From NCBI GenBank assembly GCA_017962375.1, contig JAGCVJ010000014.1, positions 42,790-106,789 on the forward strand: 64,000 nucleotides of DNA, given 5' to 3'. Origin of the DNA: Bacteroidales bacterium (GTDB taxonomy: Bacteria; Bacteroidota; Bacteroidia; Bacteroidales; UBA932). Below, piece by piece: positions 1 to 14,487 of the stretch. The notes under the pieces are model-generated. The model did no database searches, had not been told where the DNA came from, and worked only from the letters and a program-made list of their open reading frames with translations. Made by a program: the position numbers and the translations under genes. Numbering within the stretch: position 1 is the first letter of the stretch; the number at the start of each line of letters is the position of its first letter.

Positions 1-1870
1 TCTGAGGATTGGCAGCCCAAGTCTTCCCTCGGTCCTCAAAGCTTGCCATTTCCATAGGATCAGGACTGTATGGTCCCGGGATAGCCTCGCTGCTTCCCAT
101 CGTTGATGCATACAGCGGATATGCCACCCAAAGGCAGGTGTACATGCTGTACTGGTACATGTATGTATAATTGCGGTCTCCGTCTGCAAAGAAGGTGCTT
201 GTGAAGTAGTCTGAGCCTGTTTGAGATGCCGGAAGCTCAAGCCAACCGTTGATTGCCTGGCTTCCACCTTCTCCAGGTTCCTGGCTTACTGCAAGTTCTA
301 CAGAAGATGCTCCTGTATAATTAAGCGTAATGGTGCCGGTCCTTGAATTGGCGCCCGCTGCCTGTGCCGCTACATTAAACGTTATGTTATTGCCGCTTAC
401 TGCAACATTGGTTATCCAGGAAGCATTTGAAGTTGCTGTCAGAGTTACTCCCGATACCGGATTTGTAATCGTATAGCTTGCTGTCTGCGAACCGCCGGCC
501 TTACCTACCACTACAGGGTTGGAGGAGGTGATGCTGATGGCAGGGCCTGTCGGGCCAGATCCCTCCGCGATATACAGAGCCACAGGCTTCTGGCTGGAAG
601 TGTAGCAGCAGAATCGCGGGCTGCTCTGATTGTACTGGAGGGTTCTTGTTGTGGCATTGCCGCAGGCAATCGTAGCCACTCCGCTGCTGATGGAAATGTT
701 CCAGTTATAAGCATCTGCCTGCTCTATGCTGGTATTGCCACTATCCCAGGCCAGATAATTGCCGTAATTGACATCGCCGGATTTATCGTTCTGGATAGTC
801 CAGGAACTTCCATTCTTCTTTAACTTGACAGGAAGCACAGTACTTGTATTGTCCAACACGATAGTATTGCCTGTCTTGGTGATATTTTCACTAGTATGGA
901 TTGTTCCGCTCAAGCCCCCCATGGCTTTATCGAATCCGGAAGCGGCGATGATATAAGTTCCTTCAACCAGGCCGGACTGATTCTGTACCAGAGTATAGGT
1001 TACCGACGTGGAAACCGGAGTTGCATAGCCGCTCATGTTCATTCCGAATCTCGTCATCTTGCCGATCGAGAAGCTCAGAGTTCCTGAGAAGGCGCTTTCA
1101 GGCTTGGTATATGTGTTCTGGTCCGTTGAAACCACCACGCTTGAGAAACCAGCATTCTCTACCGGCATCGCTGTGAAATAAACAGGGAAAGTTCCGTCAG
1201 AAGGAACAACGGCATCGTCATAATTCAACGTTATCTTCTTGCCTCCGTTGGCATAAGTTCCAGCATCGTCGCCAGAAACCACATAATAACCGGTGACTAT
1301 CTTGTCGAATGTAACCTCAACTCTCTTGATTTTCTCGCCCGGAACAAGGCCTTTCAACGTCATCTTGTTAACGGTAATGATTCTCTGCATCATGAACTGC
1401 AGCGAGTTAAGAGCCGTAGCGGATGTTATTTCATCGGTTATCATTCCATCTGCATCCGGGTCATAGGAAGACTCTCCAGGGCTCTGAGTATCCTGAATCT
1501 TTATGTTTCCCTTGTTGCTGAATTCCTTGGCAAACCTTGCCGAATAAACATATTCGTCAGCCTGTACAGTAGCAAACTCCACTGTAAGGTCGATTCTTTT
1601 CATATCGGCGCTATAGTCAATTTCGGTAATGGTTCCCAAAGTCCCGTTCTCATAAATCCTGAAGTATTCGTCATCGCCTTCAGACCAAACATATGAAGCT
1701 TTGTCGTCTCCTTCAACCAATGACGTTTTGGTGTCTGCACCCTTGGTAAAAGAAACCTTGACAGTCCTCTTGTAAACCTCCGGCTGAGGTTCAGACTTGT
1801 CCTTTGCGCATCCCAGCAGCATCGCTGAGACAGCTGCTATCAAACCTATTTTGCAAAATATTCTTTTCAT
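1..1870 (-). CDS. Surface lipoprotein A, 3-prime end cut by window edge: pilin-like N-domain, shared mid module, BACON-like Ig domain, then start of a DNA/RNA non-specific endonuclease-like domain
   Basis: Hand translation from the ATG at 1868-1870 gives MKRIFCKIGLIAAVSAMLLGCAKDKSEP (lipobox LLGC). The frame stays open to position 1, so there is no stop and the ORF is absent from the track. Mid module ends RTLQYNQSSPRFCCYTSSQKPVALYIAEGSG. BACON-like stretch: GGSQTASYTITNPVSGVTLTATSNASWITNVAVSGNNITFNV..RTGTITLNY. The last residues, INGWLELPA..DRNYTYMYQYSMYTCLWVAYPL, resemble the N-terminal part of Endonuclease_NS lipoproteins. Confidence 0.6.
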   Translation of the reverse strand, partial: MKRIFCKIGLIAAVSAMLLGCAKDKSEPQPEVYKRTVKVSFTKGADTKTSLVEGDDKASYVWSEGDDEYFRIYENGTLGTITEIDYSADMKRIDLTVEFATVQADEYVYSARFAKEFSNKGNIKIQDTQSPGESSYDPDADGMITDEITSATALNSLQFMMQRIITVNKMTLKGLVPGEKIKRVEVTFDKIVTGYYVVSGDDAGTYANGGKKITLNYDDAVVPSDGTFPVYFTAMPVENAGFSSVVVSTDQNTYTKPESAFSGTLSFSIGKMTRFGMNMSGYATPVSTSVTYTLVQNQSGLVEGTYIIAASGFDKAMGGLSGTIHTSENITKTGNTIVLDNTSTVLPVKLKKNGSSWTIQNDKSGDVNYGNYLAWDSGNTSIEQADAYNWNISISSGVATIACGNATTRTLQYNQSSPRFCCYTSSQKPVALYIAEGSGPTGPAISITSSNPVVVGKAGGSQTASYTITNPVSGVTLTATSNASWITNVAVSGNNITFNVAAQAAGANSRTGTITLNYTGASSVELAVSQEPGEGGSQAINGWLELPASQTGSDYFTSTFFADGDRNYTYMYQYSMYTCLWVAYPLYASTMGSSEAIPGPYSPDPMEMASFEDRGKTWAANPQ

Positions 1871-1880
1871 GGCAGACATT

Positions 1881-2003
1881 TTAAAAATCACCTTCATCAT
1901 CGTAATCGTCGTCCGGAATAGTATTAGTACTCTGGGCAATGCAATTTTCTGTGCAAACGGCAAAGACCCTGCACTTTGGAACGGAGTATTTCTCCCGCTC
2001 CAT
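1881..2003 (-). CDS. Small acidic ORF A-prime (40 aa), 10 nt upstream of lipoprotein A
   Basis: Hand translation: MEREKYSVPKCRVFAVCTENCIAQSTNTIPDDDYDDEGDF. Shares the Y-x-x-P-x-C-[KR]-V-[YF] core and an acidic aromatic C-terminus with the other cassette ORFs. No signal peptide. Confidence 0.5.
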   Translation of the reverse strand: MEREKYSVPKCRVFAVCTENCIAQSTNTIPDDDYDDEGDF

Positions 2004-2137
2004 TTTGTTAAGGCAAATTAATTTCATCAATTAAAAAATTCTTTTTCCGACCCCAATCACTCAAAATCTGGCCCCGCAAAGTGATGCAAGTTAACAAAAA
2101 ATTCTTTTGGTTCTTTCTTTTCTCAGCCCCAGAAACA

Positions 2138-2171
2138 AAGAAGTCCGGAACCTGATTGTTTCGGACTTCTT
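2138..2171 (-). terminator. Hairpin downstream of lipoprotein B
   Basis: AAGAAGTCCG, a 14-nt loop, then CGGACTTCTT. On the minus strand it is followed by TGTTTCT, a weak U-tract. Confidence 0.45.
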
Positions 2172-2193
2172 GCATCACGACAAAAATCGTGTT

Positions 2194-4029
2194 TTATTTA
2201 GGAGCGCCAGCTCCAGCCTGGGCAATATACAGAAGAACTTCCTCTGTATTCTGCCAAACTCCGTCTACCATATTATAGCAGTAGAACAACTGCATATAGC
2301 CGCTTCTGCCAGAGCTTGAAGTATTCTGAGGAAGAGTAATAGTAAGTGTTCCCGTATTTCCAGATACTGAGTTGCTGGTAGTAAGAGGAATATTATAAGT
2401 AGAAACAGGACCCGACTGCGGCTGGATCTCTCCGTCAGCAGCTGGATACTTGATCTCGTAAGTAACGGTATAGGTACCGCCTGCTGCAGGCAGATACATT
2501 GTGTTGCCTACATAAACCATCGGCTCATATCCTGAAGGAGTGTTGACTCCTGAGGTGAAACGGAATTCAGGAACCGGAACAATTAGCGGATCACCTTCGC
2601 CAGTGCCTTCAAGTTTGTAGATTGCCAACGCTTCTGAAGCCAAGAAGGCATTGTCCATAAAGAATTCTTTATTATTATGATGATAACTCAGATACTTAAA
2701 TCGGCTCGCAGTATTATACGGGGTCATAAAGGCTTCGCCGTTTTCTTCCAGATGAACTTCCCAGCTAATGCCCTTCTCAGTCTCAGTAGAAGAACAGTTA
2801 TACAAATAAGTCCACTGGCTATAGTTGGAGCTAGGAGAAGAAGTTATCAAGGCGCCAATATACTTGTTGGCAAACTCCCCATTCTTGCACTCGAGCATAA
2901 CTGTATTCTTGCCGCTTCCCTTCTTCAGGGTGAATACCTGAACATCATCGCCAGGATTCTCGATAGTGGCCTTGTCTGAACTCTTAACGATATCAGCCTC
3001 TTTTCTCCAAGGGTAAGACCACATTTCTGTTGCCATTGCCTTGTCGTAAACGGTTGACGCAATCACGAACTCAGAGCCTGCGGTAAGCTCAGAATAATCG
3101 GTGACAAGCTTATACTGCAGAGGCTCTGGAGTGATGCCGCTCATGTTGAGATTGAAGGATGCAACCTGTCCCATCTTGAAATTGCCCTTTCCAGAAGGGA
3201 ATGTAACTTCCTTGGTGAAAACTCCTGCATCGGTCTTAACCTTTACAGTAAGTGTCTTGCCTTCCAGGTTTACAGGAAGAACTGAGAACCAGAACACCTT
3301 GCTGGCGTTGCTCTCTGCAGAAAGCTTGGAAGGATTGAGAGTCAGATACTTGTTCTGCTCAAATCCACCGGTGTAATACTCGTTTTCAGGATACATGGAG
3401 TTTCCTGTCAGGTACTCGGTAGAAGAAAGCTCAATGCTCTTGATGGTAACATCCTCAGGGAAGTTCTTGAGCATGAATTTTCCGTATGCTGCAATGTGGG
3501 AGAACTTGAGAGTTATCTTCTCAGGCATTGCGTTGGCAACAATAGCATGGTCAAGCGATGCAAACAGAATATGCGCTGCCTCATCGACAGATGTCATAGT
3601 AGGAGTCTGCTCCGAAGGAACTGCAAATCCCAATCCCCATCCGCCGTTATTTCCTGTGAAAGCGGTAGCAGGACTGACAGCCTGAAGCCAAAGCTCTGTG
3701 TCATCCTGTGGAAGATTGCTGAACTGAGCGTCAAAAGAAGCGGTTTTGCCGTCTCCTGAAGGAATGACGGTTGCCTCGTCAGACCAGTTTACGTTCAAGC
3801 TGAAGATAACCTTAACTTTCTGGTCTGCAGACCATACGGTTGGATAACCCTCAGATGTCTTGTCGCCGAAGTAAGTCTTTGTAGAAGGCTCCTGGGTCTG
3901 GGCGTTGAAGCTGATTTTAACAGCCTGCCTTTCCTGCTCTTTTGCAAGAGGAGAACTATCCTTGCTGCAGCTGATGAATGAAGTTGCAACTACTGCAACT
4001 ACTGCGAATAAACTGAAATACTTTCTCAT
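2194..4029 (-). CDS. Modular surface lipoprotein B: pilin-like N-domain, mid module, Ig/BACON-like C-terminus
   Basis: ORF track, 611 aa. Lipobox FISC followed by SKDSS. N-domain is paralogous to C, D and E (FSHIAAYGKFMLKNFPE, SNASKVFWFSV, FPSGKGNF). Mid module ends ALAIYKLEGTGEG. Confidence 0.85.
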   Translation of the reverse strand: MRKYFSLFAVVAVVATSFISCSKDSSPLAKEQERQAVKISFNAQTQEPSTKTYFGDKTSEGYPTVWSADQKVKVIFSLNVNWSDEATVIPSGDGKTASFDAQFSNLPQDDTELWLQAVSPATAFTGNNGGWGLGFAVPSEQTPTMTSVDEAAHILFASLDHAIVANAMPEKITLKFSHIAAYGKFMLKNFPEDVTIKSIELSSTEYLTGNSMYPENEYYTGGFEQNKYLTLNPSKLSAESNASKVFWFSVLPVNLEGKTLTVKVKTDAGVFTKEVTFPSGKGNFKMGQVASFNLNMSGITPEPLQYKLVTDYSELTAGSEFVIASTVYDKAMATEMWSYPWRKEADIVKSSDKATIENPGDDVQVFTLKKGSGKNTVMLECKNGEFANKYIGALITSSPSSNYSQWTYLYNCSSTETEKGISWEVHLEENGEAFMTPYNTASRFKYLSYHHNNKEFFMDNAFLASEALAIYKLEGTGEGDPLIVPVPEFRFTSGVNTPSGYEPMVYVGNTMYLPAAGGTYTVTYEIKYPAADGEIQPQSGPVSTYNIPLTTSNSVSGNTGTLTITLPQNTSSSGRSGYMQLFYCYNMVDGVWQNTEEVLLYIAQAGAGAPK

Positions 4030-4036
4030 TTTAATT

Positions 4037-4042
4037 TCCTCC
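4037..4042 (-). promoter_or_regulatory. Shine-Dalgarno-like GGAGGA, 7 nt before the ATG of lipoprotein B
   Basis: Minus strand reads CTTTAAAATCAGAGGAGGAAATTAAAATG. The stop of the small ORF lies 8 nt upstream of the GGAGGA. Confidence 0.5.
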
Positions 4043-4049
4043 TCTGATT

Positions 4050-4187
4050 TTAAAGATCACCCCAGTCCTCTTCTGGTGAAGGGTCAACCTCGTCGCCTGA
4101 GCTCATTGTGGCGATAGTGCCCTCTAATTTAACGGAATACACTTTGCAAAAAGGCTTAGCATATTCCTCTCTCTTGTGTGTTATCAT
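4050..4187 (-). CDS. Small acidic ORF B-prime (45 aa)
   Basis: MITHKREEYAKPFCKVYSVKLEGTIATMSSGDEVDPSPEEDWGDL. This is the 3-prime part of track ORF 4050..4286. The internal ATG at 4187 is preferred because of homology with D-prime and E-prime, and because the promoter-like box lies downstream of the longer start. Confidence 0.6.
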   Translation of the reverse strand: MITHKREEYAKPFCKVYSVKLEGTIATMSSGDEVDPSPEEDWGDL

Positions 4188-4255
4188 AATTGTTATACGT
4201 ATAATAATATATTTTTCAACTAGTATTCTTCGCAGAAAATCGCGAAAAAGCGGCG

Positions 4256-4264
4256 CAAAGTTTA
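4256..4264 (-). promoter_or_regulatory. Imperfect Bacteroidetes -7-like box (TAAACTTTG) upstream of B-prime
   Basis: Minus strand CTAAACTTTGCGCCGCTTTTTCG. The context matches the box upstream of D-prime (GCTAACTTGCGCCGCTTTTTTCG). Confidence 0.4.
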
Positions 4265-4272
4265 GAATAAAA

Positions 4273-4310
4273 GTCCAAAAAAGCAAGAGCTCGGCGCAAT
4301 ACCGAGCTCT
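4273..4310 (-). terminator. Intrinsic terminator of lipoprotein C
   Basis: AGAGCTCGG, a 7-nt loop, then CCGAGCTCT. Followed on the minus strand by TGCTTTTTTGG. Lies 32 nt after the stop codon. Confidence 0.75.
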
Positions 4311-4341
4311 ATTCCATTTAGAAATCTCAAAAAGAGGTAAG

Positions 4342-5664
4342 TTAGTTCTCGTAGGTTACATCGATATTGTAAGCCTTAACTCCACTGTAAATGTTAGTAA
4401 CAATTATTGTTAAAACTTTTCCTGTTTCTACTGTCGTTGAACTAACAGTCACATCAGGCGTACCCCAAAGTGATCCGCTTCCTACAGCAGTGTCACCTAC
4501 CTTCAAGGTTATTAAGCCATCCGTATCATCGTCAACTCCGCCCAATTTGATAGATAGACTCTTAATTTTTGCAGATCTCTCAAGCGTCGTGGTAAATGTT
4601 ATTGAGCCGGCAGCCCAATGCTCATCGCCAATAATGCTGAAATCAGTCTCCTGATCATAATCAGGGTTCTGAGTAGTGGTAATAGTCCAAGTATTTCCCT
4701 GGCTATCATTACCCGTAACTGTAGCTGCATTAATCTTGGTGCGACCGGTTCCGCTGCCAAATTGAATCGTTGCTGTCTTTTCAACAAGAGGCATTTCGAT
4801 AGTGAATGAAGCAACCCTTCCGGCCTGGAAATTACCTTTTTCTGCAGGGAAAGTGATGGTCTTAACATAATCCCCTACATTGGTGTGTACAGTAACTTTC
4901 AGGTTCTTGCCCTGCAGATCAACAGGCTTAACAGCAAACCAGAAAACTTTGCTTGCATTGCTCTCGGCAGATATCGCTGAGACATTAAGGCTAATAGTCT
5001 TAGAAGCGGTTTTATCTGCATAAGTTCCAGTTGCAGGATAGAAATAAACACTTCCTGCAATATTCTCGTCTGCCTCAAGGTCAATGCCAGAGATTGTTAC
5101 ATCCTCAGGGAAATCTTTGAGTGTAAATCTTCCGTAAGCCGCAATGTGAGAGAAAGAAAGAGATACATTATCAGGGAAAGTAGTAAATGTTGCAGACTTG
5201 GCGGCCATAATGTGAGCAGCTTCATCTACAGAGCTCATGGTCGGAGTCTGAGTTGCAGGAAATACAACTTCAACACGACTAGATGCAGCTTCCCAGGAAC
5301 TAGCGGCTACAGCTGGGCTGAGAGCATAGAACACATAGTTTCCACTGCCATCATCTGTGACCTCAGCATTGAAAGTAGCAGTCTTGCCGTCTGCAGAAGG
5401 AGTTACATCTGCCTGAACGGCATTGGCATAGTTAAGAGCAACGCTAACCTTCTGGGTTGAAGTCCAAATAGTTGGATAACCTGACGAAGTCTTGTCACCG
5501 AATTGAGTCTTAGTAGCTGGGTTAGAAGATTTAGCAATGAAGGTTACCTTTTTGGCTATAGAATCTGAAAGATTCTCCACATCTTCATTTTTGCTGCAAC
5601 TTGCCACAGTCAATCCAGCAACGGCTGCAAGGCATAAAAAACTAAAAAACTTGTTCATTTTCAT
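4342..5664 (-). CDS. Modular surface lipoprotein C: pilin-like N-domain plus a short C-terminal beta-rich module, no mid module
   Basis: ORF track, 440 aa. Lipobox VASC followed by SKNEDVEN. N-domain close to D (SVDEAAHIMAAKSATF, LKVTVHT, TITFPAEKGNFQAG). The GGAGGA position favours the second ATG at 5658. Confidence 0.85.
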   Translation of the reverse strand: MKMNKFFSFLCLAAVAGLTVASCSKNEDVENLSDSIAKKVTFIAKSSNPATKTQFGDKTSSGYPTIWTSTQKVSVALNYANAVQADVTPSADGKTATFNAEVTDDGSGNYVFYALSPAVAASSWEAASSRVEVVFPATQTPTMSSVDEAAHIMAAKSATFTTFPDNVSLSFSHIAAYGRFTLKDFPEDVTISGIDLEADENIAGSVYFYPATGTYADKTASKTISLNVSAISAESNASKVFWFAVKPVDLQGKNLKVTVHTNVGDYVKTITFPAEKGNFQAGRVASFTIEMPLVEKTATIQFGSGTGRTKINAATVTGNDSQGNTWTITTTQNPDYDQETDFSIIGDEHWAAGSITFTTTLERSAKIKSLSIKLGGVDDDTDGLITLKVGDTAVGSGSLWGTPDVTVSSTTVETGKVLTIIVTNIYSGVKAYNIDVTYEN

Positions 5665-5670
5665 TCCTCC
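5665..5670 (-). promoter_or_regulatory. Shine-Dalgarno-like GGAGGA before lipoprotein C
   Basis: Minus strand TTTAAAATTATGGAGGAATGAAAATGAAC. The spacing fits the second ATG. Confidence 0.45.
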
Positions 5671-5676
5671 ATAATT

Positions 5677-5733
5677 TTAAAGATCATCCCAGTCTTCTTC
5701 TGGTGAAGGGTCAACTTCGTCGCCAGAGCTCAT
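5677..5733 (-). pseudogene. Truncated small ORF C-prime: only the conserved 18-codon tail remains (MSSGDEVDPSPEEDWDDL)
   Basis: The tail is near-identical to B-prime, D-prime and E-prime. The upstream in-frame sequence (..DSSLTLCHFSASVA) has lost the EEY..P.C.VYS half. It may still be translated from its own ATG. Confidence 0.35.
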
Positions 5734-5757
5734 AGCAACACTGGCGGAAAAGTGACA

Positions 5758-5765
5758 CAAAGTTA
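5758..5765 (-). promoter_or_regulatory. Exact TAnnTTTG -7 box (TAACTTTG), 24 nt upstream of the C-prime ATG
   Basis: Minus strand TTTAACTTTGTGTCACTTTTCCGCC. Confidence 0.5.
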
Positions 5766-5800
5766 AAGAAGAGTCAACTAAAATTGCAAATCACAGTAAA

Positions 5801-5831
5801 ACAAAAAACGGGCAGGATTTTGTCCTGCCCG
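5801..5831 (-). terminator. Intrinsic terminator of lipoprotein D
   Basis: CGGGCAGGA, a 5-nt loop, then TCCTGCCCG. Followed on the minus strand by TTTTTTGTTTT. Confidence 0.8.
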
Positions 5832-5856
5832 CCCTAAAAGTACTATTCGAAAAAAA

Positions 5857-7956
5857 TTATAATGCAAATGATGCGCTCTTAAACTCAAAGTATCTGTTAT
5901 TATTGCCATTTACATGCACATTGTAGGTAATTTTGTAATAACAGTTGCTCCAGTCTTGTCCGCTAGGTTTTGTGATTGTTACAGATCCGTTTGCGCTGAA
6001 AGAAGGAGTTGCAGTGTAAACTGGATTTGAGAAGTCTGCGTTCTTTGATACAACAACAGTCATGGAATTTACCGTAATCTTGCTAGCAGCGCCATGAGAA
6101 ATTACAATAGAGCTGAAATCTTGCTCAAAAGCTGTTGTACTGAAAATTGTCCTGTCTACATCATCTAGCTGTTTGCCACCAATTCTCCACGGATTTTCTG
6201 TAGTGTTACCCATAACTTTCCAAGAGATATCTCCCTGAGTTATATTTGATTCTGTAGCGTAGCCATTGTCGCCACCAGTTACGGAACCGTCAAGAGTATA
6301 ACCGGAAACGAATGTTGCTGAAATTTCAACATCTGATGTTCCAACAGTGAAGGTTGCAACAGCAGTGTTGCCGCTAACTGTTGCACCAGTTACATACCAT
6401 GAGGAGAATGCGGAACCGGAAGCTGCAGTTGCAGTCAGAGTAACAGTTTTGCCTTCCTGAACCTTAGTGCCAGAAGCTATCTCGTCTCCATCAACGGTAA
6501 CAACGAAGGAGCCTCCAGTCAGTGGCTGGGTGTAGGTAATGGTATGTTTAACTTCGGCTACCAATGGATCACCGGAACCGGTGCCTTCAAGCTTGTAGAT
6601 GGCAACATCCTGCTGACCTGAAGCATAGCAAGCAAAAAGTTTCGCACCATTGTTGAATCTCAGAATGTTGCTTGAATACTGCTTGGCGGATAACTCAGCT
6701 ACACCATCACTGCCAAGGATTACGCCGAATGAAGTATTGTCACCTTTTGTGCTAAAGGTCTTCAAATAATTGCCCCCATTAGCAGAACCAATATAATAGT
6801 CCTCAACAAGGATACCTCCGTTGTTGCCTTTGAATGCAACGGTATTTGTTATCGTGCCTGCCTCAAGGAGGAATGTCTGAACGGCATCACCAGGGTTGAC
6901 AACAGTGTTTGTACCCTTGGTTATAGCAGCGGCAGCTCTGTTATTACCGTTGTCGGTAGTGCCAAGAGCATAATCTGCTTCATTTGCTACAATGATAACC
7001 TCAGAATTAGCGGTAAGCTCGTCATAGCTGGTAACAAGTGTATAAATCTTGTCAGCAGCTGGGGTTATTCCATTAAAGTCGATGTTGAAGGCTGCAACCT
7101 TTCCAGCCTGGAAATTGCCCTTGCCGGAAGGGAAAGTGATGGTCTTTACGTAATCGCCTCCATCGGTATGAACGGTGACTTTCAGGTTCTTGCCCTGCAG
7201 GTCAACTGGCTTGATTCCAAACCAGAACACCTTGCTTGCATTGCTCTCGGCAGAAATCGCTGAGGAGCTAATGCTAACGGTCTTTGCTGCAGAATTGTCT
7301 GCATACTCGCCGGTCTCAGGATAGAAGTAAACTCTTCCAACAATGTTCTCGTCTGCGGTAAGATCAACGCCTGTGATAGCAACTGTCTCAGGGAAGTTCT
7401 TGAGCATGAACTTTCCGTATGCTGCAATATGAGAGAAAGTCAAAGAAACTGAAGACTCTTCTGAAGGGAACTCAGTAAATGTAGCGGACTTGGCTGCCAT
7501 AATGTGAGCTTTCTCGTCAACAGAACCCATTGTAGGTGCCTGATTTGCCGGGAAGTCTACCTGAACGCTCTGATAACTAGCGTTCCAGGAAATAGCGGCA
7601 ACGGCTGGACTGAGAGCGTAGAAAACATAATTACCGCTTTCGTCATCATTAACTGTTACGGTGAAAGTAGCGGTCTTGCCATCTGCAGAAGGGGTTACGG
7701 TAGCCTGCTTTGCATTGGCAAAGTTAAGAGCTATGCTAACCTTCTGGTTGCTTGTCCACACTGTTGGATAACCAGCGGAAGTCTTATCACCAAAAATGGT
7801 CTTGGTGTCTGGATTAGCAGATTTAGCGTTGAAGCTAACCTTCTTTACAGGGGATGTAGGAAGATTCTCTTCTATTTCATTTTTGCTGCAGCTGGCCAAT
7901 GTCATGGCAGCAATGGCAGCAAGGCATAAATAATTAAAGAACTTTTTCATTTTCAT
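5857..7956 (-). CDS. Modular surface lipoprotein D: pilin-like N-domain, mid module, InlB-B-repeat-like module, C-terminal beta-rich module
   Basis: ORF track, 699 aa. Lipobox LASC followed by SKNEIEEN. Mid module ends VAIYKLEGTGSG. Repeat-like segment: HTITYTQPLTGGSF..GSAFSSWYVTGATVSGN. The second ATG at 7950 is favoured by the GGAGGA position. Confidence 0.85.
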   Translation of the reverse strand: MKMKKFFNYLCLAAIAAMTLASCSKNEIEENLPTSPVKKVSFNAKSANPDTKTIFGDKTSAGYPTVWTSNQKVSIALNFANAKQATVTPSADGKTATFTVTVNDDESGNYVFYALSPAVAAISWNASYQSVQVDFPANQAPTMGSVDEKAHIMAAKSATFTEFPSEESSVSLTFSHIAAYGKFMLKNFPETVAITGVDLTADENIVGRVYFYPETGEYADNSAAKTVSISSSAISAESNASKVFWFGIKPVDLQGKNLKVTVHTDGGDYVKTITFPSGKGNFQAGKVAAFNIDFNGITPAADKIYTLVTSYDELTANSEVIIVANEADYALGTTDNGNNRAAAAITKGTNTVVNPGDAVQTFLLEAGTITNTVAFKGNNGGILVEDYYIGSANGGNYLKTFSTKGDNTSFGVILGSDGVAELSAKQYSSNILRFNNGAKLFACYASGQQDVAIYKLEGTGSGDPLVAEVKHTITYTQPLTGGSFVVTVDGDEIASGTKVQEGKTVTLTATAASGSAFSSWYVTGATVSGNTAVATFTVGTSDVEISATFVSGYTLDGSVTGGDNGYATESNITQGDISWKVMGNTTENPWRIGGKQLDDVDRTIFSTTAFEQDFSSIVISHGAASKITVNSMTVVVSKNADFSNPVYTATPSFSANGSVTITKPSGQDWSNCYYKITYNVHVNGNNNRYFEFKSASFAL

Positions 7957-7962
7957 TCCTCC
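7957..7962 (-). promoter_or_regulatory. Shine-Dalgarno-like GGAGGA before lipoprotein D
   Basis: Minus strand TTTAAAATTATGGAGGAATGAAAATGAAAAAG. Confidence 0.45.
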
Positions 7963-7968
7963 ATAATT

Positions 7969-8112
7969 TTAAAGATCACCCCAGTCTTCTTCTGGTGAAG
8001 GGTCAACTTCATCGCCAGAGCTTAAAGTAGCAATGGTGCTCTCGAAATTTACGGAATACACTCTGCAAACTGGAGCAGTGTACTCCTTTTCCGTGTTAAA
8101 ATTGAACTTCAT
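7969..8112 (-). CDS. Small acidic ORF D-prime (47 aa)
   Basis: Hand translation: MKFNFNTEKEYTAPVCRVYSVNFESTIATLSSGDEVDPSPEEDWGDL. Confidence 0.6.
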   Translation of the reverse strand: MKFNFNTEKEYTAPVCRVYSVNFESTIATLSSGDEVDPSPEEDWGDL

Positions 8113-8163
8113 TTTTATAAATATGTATTATTATTTTTGTTCGATTAGGTCGAAAAAAGCGGC

Positions 8164-8171
8164 GCAAGTTA
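8164..8171 (-). promoter_or_regulatory. Imperfect -7-like box (TAACTTGC) upstream of D-prime
   Basis: Minus strand GCTAACTTGCGCCGCTTTTTTCG. Context conserved with the B-prime box. Confidence 0.35.
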
Positions 8172-8264
8172 GCATAATAAATTTGACACTTCCAAATTTT
8201 TTGGCGGAAAAACTCAAAAAATACCACTCAGCGGTGCATTACAGGCCTGTTTTGTAACATCTAT

Positions 8265-8302
8265 GACAAAAACAAAAGCGGGCAGGAATATCCCGCCCGC
8301 TT
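8265..8302 (-). terminator. Intrinsic terminator of lipoprotein E
   Basis: AAGCGGGCAGG, a short loop, then CCCGCCCGCTT (one mismatch). Followed on the minus strand by TTTTGTTTTTGTC. Confidence 0.75.
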
Positions 8303-8324
8303 AAATGCTAATACGTTCCAGAAT

Positions 8325-11246
8325 CTATTCGGCATTAACTCCCCAAACTACAAAACGTTTCCCTGTTGTTGCTGTAAGAGTCAATTGCTTATCCTGAGTC
8401 ATACCAGAAAGCGATATCTCAAAATAGTAATTTGCAGGTGCTCCACTCAAAGTAAATGGAGTATTATTACTGATTCCAGCATCACTAGTCAAAGACAAAA
8501 CAGATGGTGTTGCATCAACACCAGACAAAGTAATCTTGACTGTTTCGTTATTCCAAGCAGCGATATGAACATGAAGTTTGGTTGTTCCAGAAGGAACAGT
8601 AATTATCATTGCGCCAGCCTTACTGCTTGTTCCACACTTTATTGCATTATATTCGGTATTTGAAATAACAACTTTTGCTGCAGTTGCACTAGTTCCACCG
8701 CTAGTGCTTAGTGTTACATTACTTGTATTAATATCAGAATAATCCCCACCTGCCTCTGAGTCAAACCTTGCTGCTATAGAAACATCTGACGTTCCCATAG
8801 TGAAAGTAGCAGTTTCAGTGTTTCCGCTTACGGTAGCTCCAGAAACTGTCCAGCTAGTAAAGTTGTAGCCAGAAGCTGGAGTTGCAGTAAGGGTAACTAC
8901 TGTACCTTCCAAAACTTCAGTTCCTGAAGATATGGCAGAACCATTAACCTTTACGGTGAATGAGCCTCCAGCTGATGGCTGAGTAAATGTAACAGCATGT
9001 GCAGTAGGAGTATGGGCTTGGGTAATGGTAATGCCATCGGTAGACCAAACCTTTATCTGGTCATTGTTGTTATACCATGCTATAGTTCCCACTGCAGTAA
9101 TAACATCTCCTTCGGCAAGTCCGGAAGGAACTCCTGCGGCAGCATAAACCACATATGTATTGCTTCCATTCTTGACAGAAATGTTCTTATCGTTAATTCC
9201 GGTCACCTCAAGGTCATTGACCTGAACATATGCACTCTGATATGTACTGAGATTCCCAACAAGCTGAGAGAGTGTGAATACCTGAGGAGCTACCGTTGCC
9301 TGCGAACCGGTAAAGTTGGCAGTCAGGGCTGTGATTTCAGCACAATTGTGGTACATCGTAGCTGTTACGGTTATTGGACCTGACAATGTCTGACCCTGTA
9401 GCAAACCATGATCTGTTACAAAAACCAATGTAGAACCTGTAGCGTCTTTGATTACTGCATTCTTTGTATCAGGAACAAATGAAATTACTGCATTGGTAAG
9501 AGTTCCGGAATAATCACCTGCAGTAGCTGCCAGAGCGTTGAGTTGGGCAACTGTGGTGAAATCTGAACCAGGAGTGCTTACTTCACACTCTTTCTCTGCG
9601 ATATCACTCATGTTATAACCTGGAGCTCCGGCAAATGCCTTGACTGTGCAAGTTTCAGTGATTGTAAACGGCTCAGTATATTCCTGAGTAGTTCCGATAG
9701 GATTACCGTCATCATCGATACCAGGAGTAGTTCCATCAGTGGTATAGCCGATTCTTGCACCTGATGCGGAGCAAGTGATGGTAACGGTATTCGTTGAAGA
9801 ATTGAACGATATTTCTGGAGTTGGACACTTAGGATCATCAATCAGAGATGAGCCTTCTCCACTTCCTTCGAGTACATATACAACAACTTCCTTCTGACCA
9901 GAAGCATAGCAAGAGAAGATTGGAGGATTATTGCCGCTATTGTATTTAATAATATTACGAGTATTTTCCCCGCTAGCTTTCAATACGGTATAACCATCCT
10001 CAATTGTTACGCTGAAAGAAGCATTTCCATCCTTGGTGTCCTGACTCTTAAGATAATTTGAACCAGAACTTGCAGCATAAATATACTTATCTGTCTGATC
10101 ACCGTTTACGCACTTGAATGCAACTGTGTTGGATTCAGTACCGGCCTCAAGAGTGAATATCTGAACAGCATCGCCAGGATTGGTAATAGTTTTAAGATCT
10201 TCGCTCTTATCAACATCAGTATGAGCTCTATTATTACCATTCTGAGTAGTGCTCATTGCTTTTGCATAATCCTTAGCAACAATTATTGCCTTTGCACCAG
10301 GAAGCAATTGCTTCTTGTCAGTGAGGATTTTATAAACCTTGTCTTCTCCAGGAGTGATGCCTGCCATGCTGATTGTAAATGTAGCAACTTTTCCAGCCAG
10401 GAAGTTACCCTTACCGGTAGGGAATGTGATGGTCTTTGCATATACTCCAGCATCTGTATGAACAGCAACCTTAAGAGTCTTACCCTCCAGATTTACAGGC
10501 TTAAATGAAAACCAGAAATCGGTGGTGTTATTCTTATCTATCTCAAGGTCTGAAACATCAAGATTAACGCTGTTGCCAGCAGAATTTACTTCATAAGACC
10601 CGTCTGAAGGTTTGAAACGGAATCTTCCTGCAACCTGCTCCTGTGCGGTAAGCTCAATGCTGTTGATTGTAACAGTTTCAGGCAGGTTCCTGAACTGGAA
10701 CTTACCATAAGCAGCAATGTGAGAGAAAATCAGTGTAACAGGAGTAGTCTCCTCTGGGAACTCAGAGAATGTAGCTGACTTGGCCGCCATTATATGAGCC
10801 TTTTCATCAACGGAATTCAGGGTTGGTTTCTGTGATGCTGGGAAGTCAACCTGAACGTTGCTGTTATCTGCATTTGCATTCCAGTTTATCACTGAAGCAG
10901 CAGGGCTTAAGGCATAGAAAACATAACTATCCTGTCCGTCATCTTCAATGGTAGCATTGAAAGTAGCGGTTTTACCATCTGAGCTAGGAGTTACCTCTGC
11001 CTGCTTAGCAGAACCGAAGTTAAGGGAAATGCTAACCTTCTCGTTTTCTGTCCAAACGGTAGGATAACCAGCATCTGTCTTGTCGCCGAAAGCGGTCTTG
11101 GTGGAAGGATTGGAAGCCTTTGCACTGAAAGAGATCTTCTTTACAGATTTTTCAGGAAGGTTCTCAACAGTCTCGTTTTTGCTGCAGCTTGCCAGTGTCA
11201 GACCAGCTATGGCAGCAAGGCATAAGTAATTAAAGAACTTTTTCAT
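8325..11246 (-). CDS. Modular surface lipoprotein E, the largest: pilin-like N-domain, mid module, CHB_HEX_C-like segment, OB-fold-like (DUF5689-type) module, InlB-B-repeat-like module, C-terminal module
   Basis: ORF track, 973 aa. Lipobox LASC followed by SKNETVEN. Segments: ARIGYTTDGTTPG..TVKAFA; DFTTVAQLNAL..VIKDATGS..IKVWSTDGITI; HAVTFTQPSAGGSF..GYNFTSWTVSGATVSGN. Confidence 0.85.
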   Translation of the reverse strand: MKKFFNYLCLAAIAGLTLASCSKNETVENLPEKSVKKISFSAKASNPSTKTAFGDKTDAGYPTVWTENEKVSISLNFGSAKQAEVTPSSDGKTATFNATIEDDGQDSYVFYALSPAASVINWNANADNSNVQVDFPASQKPTLNSVDEKAHIMAAKSATFSEFPEETTPVTLIFSHIAAYGKFQFRNLPETVTINSIELTAQEQVAGRFRFKPSDGSYEVNSAGNSVNLDVSDLEIDKNNTTDFWFSFKPVNLEGKTLKVAVHTDAGVYAKTITFPTGKGNFLAGKVATFTISMAGITPGEDKVYKILTDKKQLLPGAKAIIVAKDYAKAMSTTQNGNNRAHTDVDKSEDLKTITNPGDAVQIFTLEAGTESNTVAFKCVNGDQTDKYIYAASSGSNYLKSQDTKDGNASFSVTIEDGYTVLKASGENTRNIIKYNSGNNPPIFSCYASGQKEVVVYVLEGSGEGSSLIDDPKCPTPEISFNSSTNTVTITCSASGARIGYTTDGTTPGIDDDGNPIGTTQEYTEPFTITETCTVKAFAGAPGYNMSDIAEKECEVSTPGSDFTTVAQLNALAATAGDYSGTLTNAVISFVPDTKNAVIKDATGSTLVFVTDHGLLQGQTLSGPITVTATMYHNCAEITALTANFTGSQATVAPQVFTLSQLVGNLSTYQSAYVQVNDLEVTGINDKNISVKNGSNTYVVYAAAGVPSGLAEGDVITAVGTIAWYNNNDQIKVWSTDGITITQAHTPTAHAVTFTQPSAGGSFTVKVNGSAISSGTEVLEGTVVTLTATPASGYNFTSWTVSGATVSGNTETATFTMGTSDVSIAARFDSEAGGDYSDINTSNVTLSTSGGTSATAAKVVISNTEYNAIKCGTSSKAGAMIITVPSGTTKLHVHIAAWNNETVKITLSGVDATPSVLSLTSDAGISNNTPFTLSGAPANYYFEISLSGMTQDKQLTLTATTGKRFVVWGVNAE

Positions 11247-11252
11247 TTTAAT

Positions 11253-11258
11253 TCCTCC
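11253..11258 (-). promoter_or_regulatory. Shine-Dalgarno-like GGAGGA, 6 nt before the ATG of lipoprotein E
   Basis: Minus strand TTTAAAATTTACAGGAGGAATTAAAATGAAAAAG. Confidence 0.5.
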
Positions 11259-11266
11259 TGTAAATT

Positions 11267-11410
11267 TTAAAGATCACCCCAGTCTTCCTCTGGTGAAGGG
11301 TCTACCTCGTCGCCAGAACTCATAGTAGTAATGGCGCCTTCCAAATTGATAGAGTATACTTTGCACTGTGGTGCAAGATACTCTTCTGATTTGATGAACT
11401 TGAGTTGCAT
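11267..11410 (-). CDS. Small acidic ORF E-prime (47 aa)
   Basis: Hand translation: MQLKFIKSEEYLAPQCKVYSINLEGAITTMSSGDEVDPSPEEDWGDL. Starts only 35 nt after the stop of lipoprotein F, with no hairpin between them. Confidence 0.6.
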   Translation of the reverse strand: MQLKFIKSEEYLAPQCKVYSINLEGAITTMSSGDEVDPSPEEDWGDL

Positions 11411-11445
11411 TGTGTCTGTTATTTAATTTTTAGCTAAAAATATAA

Positions 11446-13611
11446 TTATTCAAATGTAACCTTGATGCCCTTAATACGTCTGTGTCCTGTAGTTCCGGTT
11501 ACTGTAAATGTAACAGCGCTAGAAGATCCAGTCCAAACACCAGTAGAATTATTATAAGTTACAACATCAGTAGAAATAGCATTTGATCCGTCACCAGAAC
11601 CGAAGGTAAGCTCAATCATGCTTATCTTCTTGCTAGAGTCGTTAGCGGTAACAGTGAAGTAGCCGCCACCGTAAACTCTTACAGCAGTTCCTGTAGTGTA
11701 GTATTTAGGAGTGTTGCTGTTGGTACCCTTGTCAAATGTGACAGTTGCATTGGTGCCTGTTACGGTCTTTACTTCCTGTGCATTTGAATAACCTGTAGAC
11801 AAGTCAAAGGTCTCGGTGAGAACGCTTGAAGACTCAAGGTTAGCTACAATGTTGATGTCAGCAGTACCTACCTTGAAGGTTACAACATGGGAAGTGGTGC
11901 TGCTGAGATTTACTGCATTGGTAATGCTCCAGGTGGTGAAGTTATAACCGCCAGTCAATACTATCTCGGCCTTTACTTCAGTGCCTTCAATATACTTGGC
12001 GCCTGAAGTGATTTCAGTTCCGCCAACAGTTACTTTGATAGAACCGCCGGCTTCCGGCTGGGTAAAGTTGATGGCGTGCTCTGTTGGAGTGTGCTCGGTA
12101 ATGGTTAAGTCATCAGCCTTCCAAACCTTGAGCTCTTTGAATACAGTATCGTCCTTCTTAAACTGTGTAACGGTTCCGATTACTGTAATCTTATCACCTA
12201 CAACACAGGTTGGAGTGCCATAGTTGCAGTATACGATGAAACCGGTATACTCTCCATCTGTAACGGTAACGTTCTTTCCATCAACAGCAGTAACTTCAAC
12301 ATTTTCAAGCTTAGCGTATGTGTTCTGATAAGTATTATACTGCCAGCCCATATTGAAGATAGTCAATACCTGAGGATCAACTACAGCGCCTTCACCAGTG
12401 AATGTGGCATCCATGGTGGTGATCTCAGAATAGAGGCTCTGGTAATTCTGGAGGGTAACTGTGATGTTGCCGGTATAGGTCTGGCCCTGCTTCAAGCCGT
12501 GGCCGGACTTGTAGTACATAACTGAACCTGTTCCGTCTGTAATGATGGCAACAGTAGTATTAGGAACAAATGAAACAACTGCATTGGTGAGCTTACCTGT
12601 CTTGGATGTTGGGGTTTCGCCAACTTCATCAGCAAGTTCGTTGAGCTCTGCAACAGTTGTGAAGTCGAAAGTTTCGAGAGTCTTGTCGTAAGCGAAAGCT
12701 ATCTTCTTCATCTTGCCAGCCTTGAACTCATAGTCCTTGTCTGCAGAGATAACCTTTTCCTGAGCTCCGTTGGATGCGGTAACGGTGATGGTGAAGTCAT
12801 CGCCTTCGTTAACAACGAAAGGCTTAACTGCAAGATAGAAAGTGGCCTTTTCGCCTGCTGCTATTGCCTCGCCGCTGTTTACAACCAGGTTAGCTACGTT
12901 GCTTACATAGGTTTCGCCGCTTGGGGTGAAGCCAGGATTGTAAGGATCTGTGAAATCGATGTAGTAGGTACCTACGATATCAACTCCGTCGGCTGTGATG
13001 GAAATGCCGGAAACTGTAATAGCTTCTCCTTTCTTTGTAGCGTTCTCAACCTCAACCTCAATAAGAGAGGAAAGATGCCTCATCTGGATAACAGGCCTTT
13101 CGTCGCCAGAAATTTTAGATGCTACACCTGCGATAGGATAGTTGTTGCCGGAAATATGAGCAGTGCTGTTGTTGCCCTTCTGAGTCTGGTTGCCCTTTGC
13201 GGTGGATCCTACAGTCACATAACCTGCAGATGTGTTGGCAGGAGTGGTGATCTGCTTTGTGTAAGGATAGAAAGCGTACCAGTTGTAGGTCTTGGTTTCA
13301 TCAAAGCTGGCATCAAGGGTTCCTGTGAAGGTGGCGGTTGCGCCTGCAGCTGATGTCTTGAACTGGCCGTCGCTGACATAAGCAGGAGTATCCTCGCCAG
13401 CAACATTGTGGAACAGGTTGATAGCGTCATTGGCAGCCCACAGCGTCTTCATGCCGTCATTGGTGGTCTTGGTGTTGACGCCGTTAAGAGTTACTGAGAA
13501 ATCGGTCTTCTCGATTTCCTTCATTCCGGTATCGTTCTTAGAACATCCGGTGAATGCAATGGCAGCTACTGCCAAAGCACTCAAAACGTAAGATTTGAAT
13601 TTCTTTGTCAT
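11446..13611 (-). CDS. Modular surface lipoprotein F: divergent pilin-like N-domain, OB-fold-like module, InlB-B-repeat-like module, C-terminal module
   Basis: ORF track, 721 aa. Lipobox FTGC followed by SKNDTG. Segments: NTKTTNDGMKTLWAANDAINLF, YAFYPY, MRHLSSLIEVEV; FTTVAELNEL..AIITDGTGS..LKVWKADDLTI; HAINFTQPEAGGS..GYNFTTWSI; C-terminus PKYYTTGTAVRVYGGG. Confidence 0.85.
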   Translation of the reverse strand: MTKKFKSYVLSALAVAAIAFTGCSKNDTGMKEIEKTDFSVTLNGVNTKTTNDGMKTLWAANDAINLFHNVAGEDTPAYVSDGQFKTSAAGATATFTGTLDASFDETKTYNWYAFYPYTKQITTPANTSAGYVTVGSTAKGNQTQKGNNSTAHISGNNYPIAGVASKISGDERPVIQMRHLSSLIEVEVENATKKGEAITVSGISITADGVDIVGTYYIDFTDPYNPGFTPSGETYVSNVANLVVNSGEAIAAGEKATFYLAVKPFVVNEGDDFTITVTASNGAQEKVISADKDYEFKAGKMKKIAFAYDKTLETFDFTTVAELNELADEVGETPTSKTGKLTNAVVSFVPNTTVAIITDGTGSVMYYKSGHGLKQGQTYTGNITVTLQNYQSLYSEITTMDATFTGEGAVVDPQVLTIFNMGWQYNTYQNTYAKLENVEVTAVDGKNVTVTDGEYTGFIVYCNYGTPTCVVGDKITVIGTVTQFKKDDTVFKELKVWKADDLTITEHTPTEHAINFTQPEAGGSIKVTVGGTEITSGAKYIEGTEVKAEIVLTGGYNFTTWSITNAVNLSSTTSHVVTFKVGTADINIVANLESSSVLTETFDLSTGYSNAQEVKTVTGTNATVTFDKGTNSNTPKYYTTGTAVRVYGGGYFTVTANDSSKKISMIELTFGSGDGSNAISTDVVTYNNSTGVWTGSSSAVTFTVTGTTGHRRIKGIKVTFE

Positions 13612-13622
13612 AACTGCTGATT

Positions 13623-13775
13623 TTAAGCATTCATAGGATCACCATCGTCTTCCCAGTCATCAATTGTGCCGTCTCCGCTGGCACAGATAATTCCCTCTGA
13701 CTCGAGGTCCAGGAATTCGATCTCAGGAGTCTCATAGAACTCCTTGATTCTCTGAACAGTAAAGTTTTTCTTCAT
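13623..13775 (-). CDS. Small acidic ORF F-prime (50 aa)
   Basis: Hand translation: MKKNFTVQRIKEFYETPEIEFLDLESEGIICASGDGTIDDWEDDGDPMNA. Stop lies 11 nt before the ATG of lipoprotein F. Confidence 0.5.
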   Translation of the reverse strand: MKKNFTVQRIKEFYETPEIEFLDLESEGIICASGDGTIDDWEDDGDPMNA

Positions 13776-13834
13776 AATATGTTAATGTTGTAATAATTCT
13801 ACTGCGCTCCGGGGGCAATACCCCATAGAGCATT

Positions 13835-13842
13835 CAAAGTTA
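13835..13842 (-). promoter_or_regulatory. Exact TAnnTTTG -7 box (TAACTTTG) upstream of F-prime, at the head of the array
   Basis: Minus strand TTCATAACTTTGAATGC, 59 nt upstream of the F-prime ATG. A short GGGG..CCCC hairpin lies in the leader. Confidence 0.5.
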
Positions 13843-13989
13843 TGAAATAAAACAATACTCTACGAGTATTTTTTCAAGAAAACGCAAAAAAAGTTCAGCT
13901 TTTGAGGAAAAAGCGGAAATGAGAAGGAAAAAAGATGAAAGATGATAAAAGTAAGGAAGAAGGAAGGGCGTGGAGATAAAGAGGCGGTA

Positions 13990-14487
13990 TCAGAAGCAGT
14001 ACACGATAATGTAGTACATCATGAAGCCGCAGGAGATGAGCTTGAGAAGGGTGCCGCAGACAAAGCCCGCAAAAGCGCCAAGAGCGGGAACTATGCTCTG
14101 GCCTGCTTTTTTGCCGGAGAAGGCGGCCTCGCAGACGAAGGCTCCTATCATAGGGCCTATGATTATCCCGATGGGGGCGAAGAACAGGCCCACCAGAACC
14201 CCTGCCAGAGCGCCTCTGGAAGCGTATTTGCTGCCTCCAGATGCCTTGGTGAGGTAGGAAGGGACCAGGTAGTCCAGAACCGTAACCACAGCCATGATGG
14301 CCATCCAGATTAGAAGCAGGCGGGTGGACATGGTGTTGCCCGCAGAGTCTGTGCCCTTGCCCCAGAAGTAAAGGACCACCATTCCCAGCCAGGAGATAGG
14401 AGGGCCGGGAATGACCGGAAGCACGCATCCGATGATGCCGAGCAGTCCGAGGAATATTGCAAGAGCTATGATGACGTATGAGAGCAT
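13990..14487 (-). CDS. DUF456-like membrane protein
   Basis: Track ORF 13990..14559. The internal ATG at 14487 (MLSYVIIALAIFLG..) avoids overlap with the upstream gene. LPVIPGPP and GGSKYASRGALAGVLVG patterns are present. Confidence 0.65.
   Translation of the reverse strand: MLSYVIIALAIFLGLLGIIGCVLPVIPGPPISWLGMVVLYFWGKGTDSAGNTMSTRLLLIWMAIMAVVTVLDYLVPSYLTKASGGSKYASRGALAGVLVGLFFAPIGIIIGPMIGAFVCEAAFSGKKAGQSIVPALGAFAGFVCGTLLKLISCGFMMYYIIVYCF

Follow-up and report, generated by a model that had tools for sequence, protein, structure and literature searches.

What could a protein of 45-50 amino acids be doing just ahead of a lipoprotein gene when such a pair is found six times in succession? The question is raised by contig JAGCVJ010000014.1 of a Bacteroidales bacterium (assembly GCA_017962375.1), from which a stretch of 64,000 nucleotides (nt), here called the window, was analysed. 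At window positions 1-13775 there are six lipoprotein genes in tandem, all on the minus strand, with a small open reading frame (ORF) 10-20 nt ahead of each; the lipoproteins are lettered A to F from low to high coordinate, and a prime marks the small ORF of each. The small protein has two parts, a head at its N-terminus that is recognisable family-wide (consensus K-x-x-Y-x-x-P, a beta-hairpin-like stretch, then E-G-h-h-C-x-S) and an acidic tail, some 17-22 residues long with an aromatic or hydrophobic end, that differs by type. The answer favoured here, to which we give a probability of roughly one half, is that the small proteins serve as donor strands, supplied in trans, to pilin-like lipoproteins without donor strands of their own. 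The tail, with the last strand of the head, would sit in the groove of the pilin-like domain of its own lipoprotein, and would there replace the C-terminal strands that come from a neighbouring subunit in polymerised type V pili; possible outcomes are that the domain is stabilised, capped or released. As the tail would touch the pilin-like domain only, it would be expected to diverge together with that domain and to be indifferent to the adhesin modules further along.

Is this the pattern seen? Small-ORF type tracks the N-domain of the lipoprotein, and the tail does so more strictly than the head. The material, made up of 60 regions of other genomes that surround small-ORF matches, of further related loci and of the window, contained 117 hits, 112 of them unique. 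For five of the latter the downstream sequence was too short to judge, and 98 of the remaining 107 directly precede a lipoprotein gene (86 by a regular expression for the lipobox and 12 more by eye); of the nine with no lipoprotein next, four lack any ORF downstream, and among the others are unclear cases, a secreted protein that is not a lipoprotein and a radical S-adenosylmethionine (SAM) enzyme. The statistics come from 79 unique pairs in 23 genomes, in which the lipoprotein has 280 residues or more, the gap does not exceed 60 nt and the lipobox was found by the regular expression, with head and tail split at the conserved C-x-S position (residues 1-30 and 31-47 of D'). Pairs of cassettes with the same tail type fall inside one N-domain cluster in 111 of 119 cases, those with the same head type in 82 of 315. 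The area under the curve (AUC) for belonging to the same N-domain cluster is 0.82 by tail and 0.73 by head at a threshold of 33%, 0.92 and 0.80 at 40%, and 0.997 and 0.93 at 50%, with similar values when between-genome pairs only are used, and the most similar cassette is in the same N-domain cluster for 52.9/56 when sought by tail and for 37/56 when sought by head. On a FastTree tree of the 79 N-domains the 44 tail types can be placed with 43 changes, no more than the theoretical minimum, and the 31 head types with 34, against a minimum of 30; in 300 shuffled label sets the mean was 64 changes for tails (lowest 60) and 54 for heads.

For the modules beyond the N-domain, the comparison was of 61 cassettes with at least 100 amino acids past it, a shared module being a BLASTP match with E<1e-10 over at least 80 amino acids. 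None of the 44 pairs that share a C-terminal module and differ in N-domain cluster have tails at least 50% identical; similar tails occur in 22 of the 74 pairs with the same N-domain cluster and no shared module, and in 53 of the 77 where both are shared. A Mantel test over all 3081 pairs gave a weak correlation (rho 0.05-0.14), since most pairs are unrelated and lie at the noise floor. An earlier reading of this DNA, made from sequence only, had stated that small-ORF type follows the N-domain and not the C-terminal modules, had suggested from this that the small protein is functionally tied to that domain or to its export, with co-duplication as the null explanation, and had pointed to the congruence of trees and to the occurrence of mixed cassettes as tests. 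The tracking holds well beyond the window, and the suggested tie to the N-domain is supported: the tail types fit the N-domain tree without a surplus change, sharing of a module alone goes with no likeness of tails, and no cassette mixed in respect of the tail was found in the 79 pairs and 23 genomes.

How this looks within the array can be followed from its features:

2-1870, minus strand: lipoprotein A, with a divergent pilin-like N-domain and a BACON domain; the 3' end lies beyond the window and the open frame has 867 codons in the genome
1881-2030, minus strand: small ORF A', 48-49 amino acids, divergent type, tail TNTIPDDDYDDEGDF
2194-4029, minus strand: lipoprotein B, 611 amino acids, with an N-domain of the B-E type, 42-45% identical to those of C, D and E
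4050-4187, minus strand: small ORF B', 45 amino acids counted from MITHK, in an open frame that extends to 4286
4342-5664, minus strand: lipoprotein C, 440 amino acids, with an N-domain of the B-E type, 71% identical to that of D, and a different C-terminal part
5677-5733, minus strand: C' remnant, an 18-codon ORF with its own ATG, tail only (MSSGDEVDPSPEEDWDDL), 12 nt upstream of C
5803-5834, minus strand: GC-rich hairpin and then a T run, terminator-like as read from the sequence, after D and abutting the upstream side of the C' remnant
5857-7956, minus strand: lipoprotein D, 699 amino acids, of which residues 1-300 were modelled
7957-7968, minus strand: spacer of 12 nt from the D' stop to the D start, with a conserved, Shine-Dalgarno-like GGAGGA
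7969-8112, minus strand: small ORF D', 47 amino acids, with residues 26-47 as the predicted interface with the D N-domain
8325-11246, minus strand: lipoprotein E, 973 amino acids, with a pilin-like N-domain, the shared second domain, then CHB_HEX_C/Fn3_assoc and Flg_new_2
11267-11410, minus strand: small ORF E', 47 amino acids, B-E type, tail SSGDEVDPSPEEDWGDL
11446-13611, minus strand: lipoprotein F, 721 amino acids, with a lipobox Cys, a divergent pilin-like N-domain and a C-terminal block in common with E
13623-13775, minus strand: small ORF F', 50 amino acids, head MKKNFTVQRIKEFYETPEIEFLDLESEGIICAS, tail GDGTIDDWEDDGDPMNA

Overall identity among B', D' and E' is 66-80%, and over the last 17 residues (SSGDEVDPSPEEDWGDL) the three do not differ; the C' remnant differs from this tail at one position, and A' and F' are about 29-33% identical to small ORFs of the B-E type. 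N-domain identity (BLASTP, tblastn) is 42-71% among B to E and 24-28% between A or F and B to E. The grouping that the sequence-only reading had put forward, i.e., one sequence type for B', D', E' and the C' remnant, one N-domain type for their partners, and A' and F' divergent together with the N-domains of A and F, is thus found again in these identities. Its companion statement, that the C-terminal architectures of B to E are quite different, needs correction, since the difference is not total: a second domain that reaches to about residue 490-500 is common to A, B, D and E (no Pfam match for residues ~300-490), and a C-terminal block with 44% identity occurs in both E and F (E 562-830 and F 316-594; window 8325-9560 and 11830-12665). 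As the N-domains of E and F are only ~26% identical, the block is a natural module swap between N-domain types. The pairings of types recur elsewhere. The A' tail type and the A N-domain cluster occur together in loci L004 and L006, the F' tail type precedes the same N-domain type in L002 and L018, and the B-E N-domain cluster includes cassettes with quite different heads but a (D/E)DDW-G tail (L003|2851, L044|237).

Could the resemblance among the B-E type pairs be the result of recent copying? Synonymous divergence (dS) is near saturation, at 0.8 to >1.2 for the small ORFs and 1.15-1.9 for the N-domains, and so recent copying or homogenisation is ruled out. With nonsynonymous divergence (dN) between the small ORFs of 0.14-0.20, and the differences in their tails being mostly third-position changes, the small ORFs are old and encode proteins under purifying selection. 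In the C cassette the head of the small ORF has been lost, and the terminator-like hairpin from the end of D adjoins the tail-only ORF (5677-5834).

What sort of domain is it that the tail follows so closely? All six window proteins start with a hydrophobic signal that ends at a lipobox-type Cys with S, A or G just before it; this Cys (C23) is invariant in the N-domain alignment, and the signals are of the ordinary Sec type, without twin arginines. Residues 1-300 of D, modelled with AlphaFold2 from a 41-row alignment, form two beta-sandwich subdomains (predicted local distance difference test, pLDDT, 86; predicted template modelling score, pTM, 0.81). The best Foldseek match of the model is 3ufi (1.6e-8), followed by 3t2l, 4k4k, Mfa3 (5nf4), Mfa4 (5dhm), Mfa2 (5nfi) and FimA (6jzk), with E from 1.6e-8 to 1e-3 and template modelling (TM) scores of only 0.4-0.5; the top matches (E 1.6e-8 to 1e-5) are type V pilin or 'cell adhesion' proteins of Bacteroides. 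At E<=0.01 none of the six window proteins matches PF13149 (Mfa_like_1), and what Pfam finds in them is distal modules only (BACON, Flg_new_2, CHB_HEX_C/Fn3_assoc). Paralogous partners do match Mfa_like_1, those in L008 (2.1e-32), L016 (2.3e-11; a 41%-identical paralog of F) and L012 (2e-8), and the distant D homologs P0155 and P0158 carry PF13149. The description of the N-domain as pilin-like, earlier offered without database searches, is borne out by the Foldseek matches and by these paralogs. Homologs of D carry further modules, namely OB-fold PF01336, Endonuclease_NS PF01223, Big_3 and Lcl_C.

The D model has a strand at 37-46, a low-confidence loop at 50-57 and a last core strand at 287-293; T51 and K52, in the loop after strand 37-46, are conserved in at least 90% of the 41 sequences. 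Strand and T51-K52 loop have, in the model, the layout of the type V anchor strand and protease loop, with cleavage there being putative. At the other end, partners that are pilin only (284-334 amino acids) finish 5-12 residues past the last core strand and have no donor strands, and in the modular lipoproteins the pilin-like part is followed by other modules, again without C-terminal donor strands, which fits the tip pilin class. On these models and alignments, the N-domain has the type V (FimA/Mfa) pilin fold without C-terminal donor strands of its own.

Would the tail of the small protein suit such a domain? D residues 1-300, with its own alignment, and D', with a 53-row alignment, were predicted as a complex. 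The interface score ipSAE was 0.83 (0.82, 0.84 and 0.83 in the runs), with 0.01 for the best control; 116 of 157 solved complexes attain this ipSAE mark, as do 2 of 215 mismatched pairs, counts that are rough given own alignments. The runs share at least 72% of their contacts, and the pLDDT of the partner is 59-61. On the D' side the predicted interface is residues 26-47, and on the D side 55-67, 75, 85, 94-104, 112, 114, 153-157, 166, 169-176, 180, 186, 273-280 and 285-293; the most certain of the predicted contacts have D' 40-47 in register with D 286-293 as parallel strands. The signal peptide and the anchor strand (37-46) both lie outside the interface. Interface residues have lower entropy than the remaining domain (1.28 vs 1.71 bits, p=0.002; p=0.016 for strand residues only), and the C' remnant retains exactly the tail. 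Such a model supports binding and does not show it, and may speak for likeness rather than binding.

How widespread are these small proteins? They have no family in Pfam or NCBIfam, and their matches in the ESM Atlas, all to unnamed 'hypothetical protein' clusters, score 0.88-0.89 and miss the threshold of 0.9 for a lead. A search with a hidden Markov model (HMM) of the genome from which the window comes (2.17 Mb, 18 contigs, 87% complete) found at least 18 members in addition to the C' remnant, all but one of them directly ahead of a lipoprotein gene. Conversely, a small ORF precedes 16 of the 18 N-domain-like ORFs of that genome; of the remaining two, one is truncated at a contig end, and C10:113297-114253 (319 codons, N-domain HMM E 7e-16) is the only complete ORF ahead of which no small ORF was detectable. 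Within the same taxonomic family, 45 of 150 other genomes match the family profile at E<=0.001 (14 of the 37 sampled genera, its own included), and in an order-wide sample 1 of 300 other genomes does so at E<=1e-6; an alignment-based search for related loci gave 6 loci in 4 metagenome-assembled genomes (MAGs), and the titled records among the matches are rumen MAGs of uncultured Bacteroidales. Among 1.84 billion representative proteins the profile found 2113 clusters (50% identity) at E<=0.001. The 150 family matches listed of those 2113 are all of 37-81 amino acids, and 143 of them are new, seven having been in the set already. All 143 have Y..P; their tails are 26% D/E and 2.5% K/R, and 131 of the 143 have a hydrophobic or aromatic residue in the last three positions. 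Where the sources name the protein at all, the name is 'hypothetical protein'. In a variant subfamily, at L031 (G026:C1:923900-936700) and L052, heads with ...EGFIATSG are followed by longer, less acidic tails ending ...MYNPKPDKNKLIG, and these small ORFs are 113-144 nt upstream of their lipoprotein genes, vs the usual 2-36 nt. As to the surroundings of the array in the window, positions 1-14000 are a low-G+C island, 41-48% as compared with 50-55% in the flanks (14001-64000), and upstream of the array are housekeeping genes, DUF456, OstA/LptD-like, PPIase, IMPDH and others.

Several points weigh against donor strands in trans, and the gravest concerns the route. The pilin-like domain is exported by Sec and the small protein is signal-less, and no known route joins the two: signal peptide and lipobox are both missing from the small proteins, with stops close upstream, no exporter is found beside the array, and the one C39 peptidase ATP-binding cassette (ABC) transporter of the genome is unlinked to it. 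In type V pili, by contrast, the donor strand belongs to an exported pilin. (An earlier start that would yield a signal peptide was considered for the small ORFs and rejected, as the open frames are just 51-52 codons for D', E' and F'.) The tail is acidic, whereas the donor region of Mfa1 is largely hydrophobic, 11 of 21 residues as given in PMC13655056. The predicted complex rests on one folded pair, D with D'; its score may reflect the memory that the model has of solved pilin polymers, and since the domain was cut at residue 300, a segment of the full protein could fill the same edge. The loci were picked via small-ORF matches, with pilin-like genes lacking a small ORF examined in the own genome only, and the cassettes are related, so that the data points are not independent. 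Lastly, the congruence is equally predicted by co-duplication, the two genes being 10-20 nt apart with the tail nearest the lipoprotein gene. Support that goes beyond this null explanation comes from the retention of the pair across very divergent paralogs, from the purifying selection, from the difference between tail and head, and from the predicted interface.

Need there then be any contact between the two proteins? The small ORF might instead be a translationally coupled upstream ORF, enabling or controlling translation of the lipoprotein, whose type follows that of the N-domain by joint copying; we regard this as possible though rather unlikely. The spacing would suit it, the gap from stop to start being mostly 2-36 nt and most commonly 12 nt (15 of 79 pairs), and so would GGAGG, which 27 of 79 pairs have no more than 22 nt before the start of the lipoprotein gene, compared with 37 of 1089 long ORFs of the own genome, the starts of which were roughly called. 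Bacteroidota are not known to use Shine-Dalgarno sequences often, and a motif this frequent would be unusual for them. In the window GGAGG(A) is in the spacers 7957-7968, 11247-11266 and 4030-4049, and it is ~10x commoner than before other long ORFs. The similarity of dS in small ORF and N-domain means that they are of the same age, and an RNA-library contig that bridges the start of D and the 3' part of D' (7944-8036) is a weak hint of a shared transcript; this RNA evidence consists of assembled contigs from two RNA libraries with small word shares, covering parts of D, from which neither a transcript nor a strand or level can be read, and places without cover carry no meaning. A short ORF that ends a few nt before a start, with a ribosome-binding signal, is just what an upstream ORF of this kind looks like, and a role for the protein is still compatible with it. 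However, coupling needs no conserved peptide, yet selection has acted on the amino-acid sequence, and the Y..P, the hairpin and the acidic tail with its aromatic end are kept across the family of 2113 clusters. It also leaves unexplained both the strict congruence of tails beside heads that are shared across clusters (the 82 of 315 same-head pairs within a cluster) and the confident predicted interface. A read-through fusion of small ORF and lipoprotein was considered too and rejected, as the gaps do not regularly preserve the reading frame and the fusion would have its signal peptide inside.

If contact there is, must it be in the envelope? The want of an export signal, the encoding immediately upstream, probably on the same mRNA, and the predicted contact with the N-domain would all agree with a cytoplasmic holdase or targeting partner of the new pre-lipoprotein that is left behind at the Sec translocon, and many dedicated secretion chaperones are, like the small protein, small and acidic. 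Such a factor seems improbable all the same: Sec substrates cross the membrane unfolded, but the predicted interface is a folded two-domain groove and not an unfolded chain, with lipoprotein residues 1-33 outside it, and we know of no pre-export factor of this sort for Bacteroidota lipoproteins. A further idea, that the small protein is like a ribosomally synthesised and post-translationally modified peptide (RiPP), with the head as leader for a maturase or exporter and the tail as a modified, secreted core peptide, comes from one member, C4:162976-163161, in which the usual head is joined to a Cys-rich tail and which is 139 nt upstream of a radical SAM/SPASM enzyme. This enzyme matches the RiPP-maturase family TIGR04463 best (E 8.6e-41), though with 140 bits it stays under the 525-bit family cutoff. 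At this locus (C4:162976-164680; L013:177-1881, with L079 as wider context) there is a PKD-domain protein upstream. The C39 peptidase ABC transporter can also be counted for this idea, and many tails contain C-x-S-G-D, which may resemble the Cys-X3-Asp sites of ranthipeptides. Against it, of the members in the own genome, at least 18 in number, a single one has a maturase beside it, neither the array nor the RiPP-like locus has an exporter or peptidase beside it, and the head is without a double-glycine motif. Homologs of the radical SAM enzyme (E<=1e-30) are in 4 of the 150 family genomes, one of them close (43% identity), and small ORFs in 45 of the 150; G003 and G167 have 8-10 small ORFs and no radical SAM homolog. 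Being rare in the family and absent from genomes rich in small ORFs, the enzyme is not the general partner of the latter; RiPP maturation as the general mechanism was rejected on this co-occurrence, and a RiPP-like nature of the small proteins is very improbable.

To return to donor strands in trans, what would follow if they are real? The lipoproteins could then be termed 'split pilins', adhesins of a rumen Bacteroidales lineage that lost their donor strand and are each complemented by a strand from a separate small gene upstream, though this step we put forward only tentatively. To our knowledge type V pilus assembly has been described without a dedicated chaperone, and the small proteins would be the first dedicated partners, chaperone or cap, to complement a strand in trans for proteins of the type V pilus type. 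They would add a component to the assembly scheme of pilins, lipoprotein export pathway and protease, would explain how pilin-like domains without donor strands remain folded or monomeric, and would imply a novel way of bringing a signal-less acidic peptide of ~45 amino acids to the cell envelope. More than 2000 clusters of small proteins, mostly missed by gene callers, would gain a function, and type V pili and related pilin-like adhesins rank as major structures on the surface of Bacteroidota from the gut, the rumen and the mouth. The pairs are also a compact test case for the co-evolution of a peptide of ~20 residues and its receptor domain. Full-text literature searches found no paper linking the small ORFs to type V pilins.

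How does the arrangement compare with what is known? According to PMC13655056, in the Mfa1 pilus a stretch of ~21 residues from the next subunit, strands beta14-betaC, serves as donor: beside beta4 in the first subdomain it takes the place of the anchor strand beta1, and in the second subdomain also that of the subunit's own beta14; betaC runs parallel to beta13, its last one or two residues are essential, and the tip pilins Mfa4 and Mfa5 are without donor strands. The likeness to the N-domains is in the lipoprotein nature, the two-domain fold, the predicted anchor strand and the conserved basic K52 in the loop after it, a putative protease site. It extends to the absence of own donor strands, as in Mfa4 and Mfa5, and to the predicted placing of a 22-residue peptide parallel to the last core strand and against the fourth strand, 94-104, which is equated with Mfa1 beta4 by strand order alone. 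The differences are that the putative donor strand is a separate upstream product and not the C-terminus of a neighbouring pilin, and that the array is without stalk or anchor pilin genes.

Adhesins with Mfa_like_1 (PF13149) are alike in having a pilin-like N-terminal part joined to further modules, here LRR, Cleaved_Adhesin, Lcl_C, BACON and Flg_new_2, and tip pilins laid out similarly, including Bacteroides ones diversified by diversity-generating retroelements (DGR), are described in bioRxiv 10.1101/2024.11.15.621889; a difference is that the passages of that preprint covered here mention no small upstream ORF. RiPP precursors share with the small proteins a conserved head and variable tail, and one member does adjoin a radical SAM/SPASM enzyme, but 17 of 18 own-genome members have no maturase nearby and are beside a lipoprotein instead. 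In the chaperone-usher systems of PapD and FimC, the incomplete groove of a pilin is filled by a strand that a non-pilin protein supplies in trans. It is this principle of strand complementation in trans that the small proteins would have in common with them, and not the fold or the machinery, which are unrelated: there, one 25-kDa periplasmic chaperone with a signal peptide serves all subunits, whereas here each lipoprotein has a small partner of its own.

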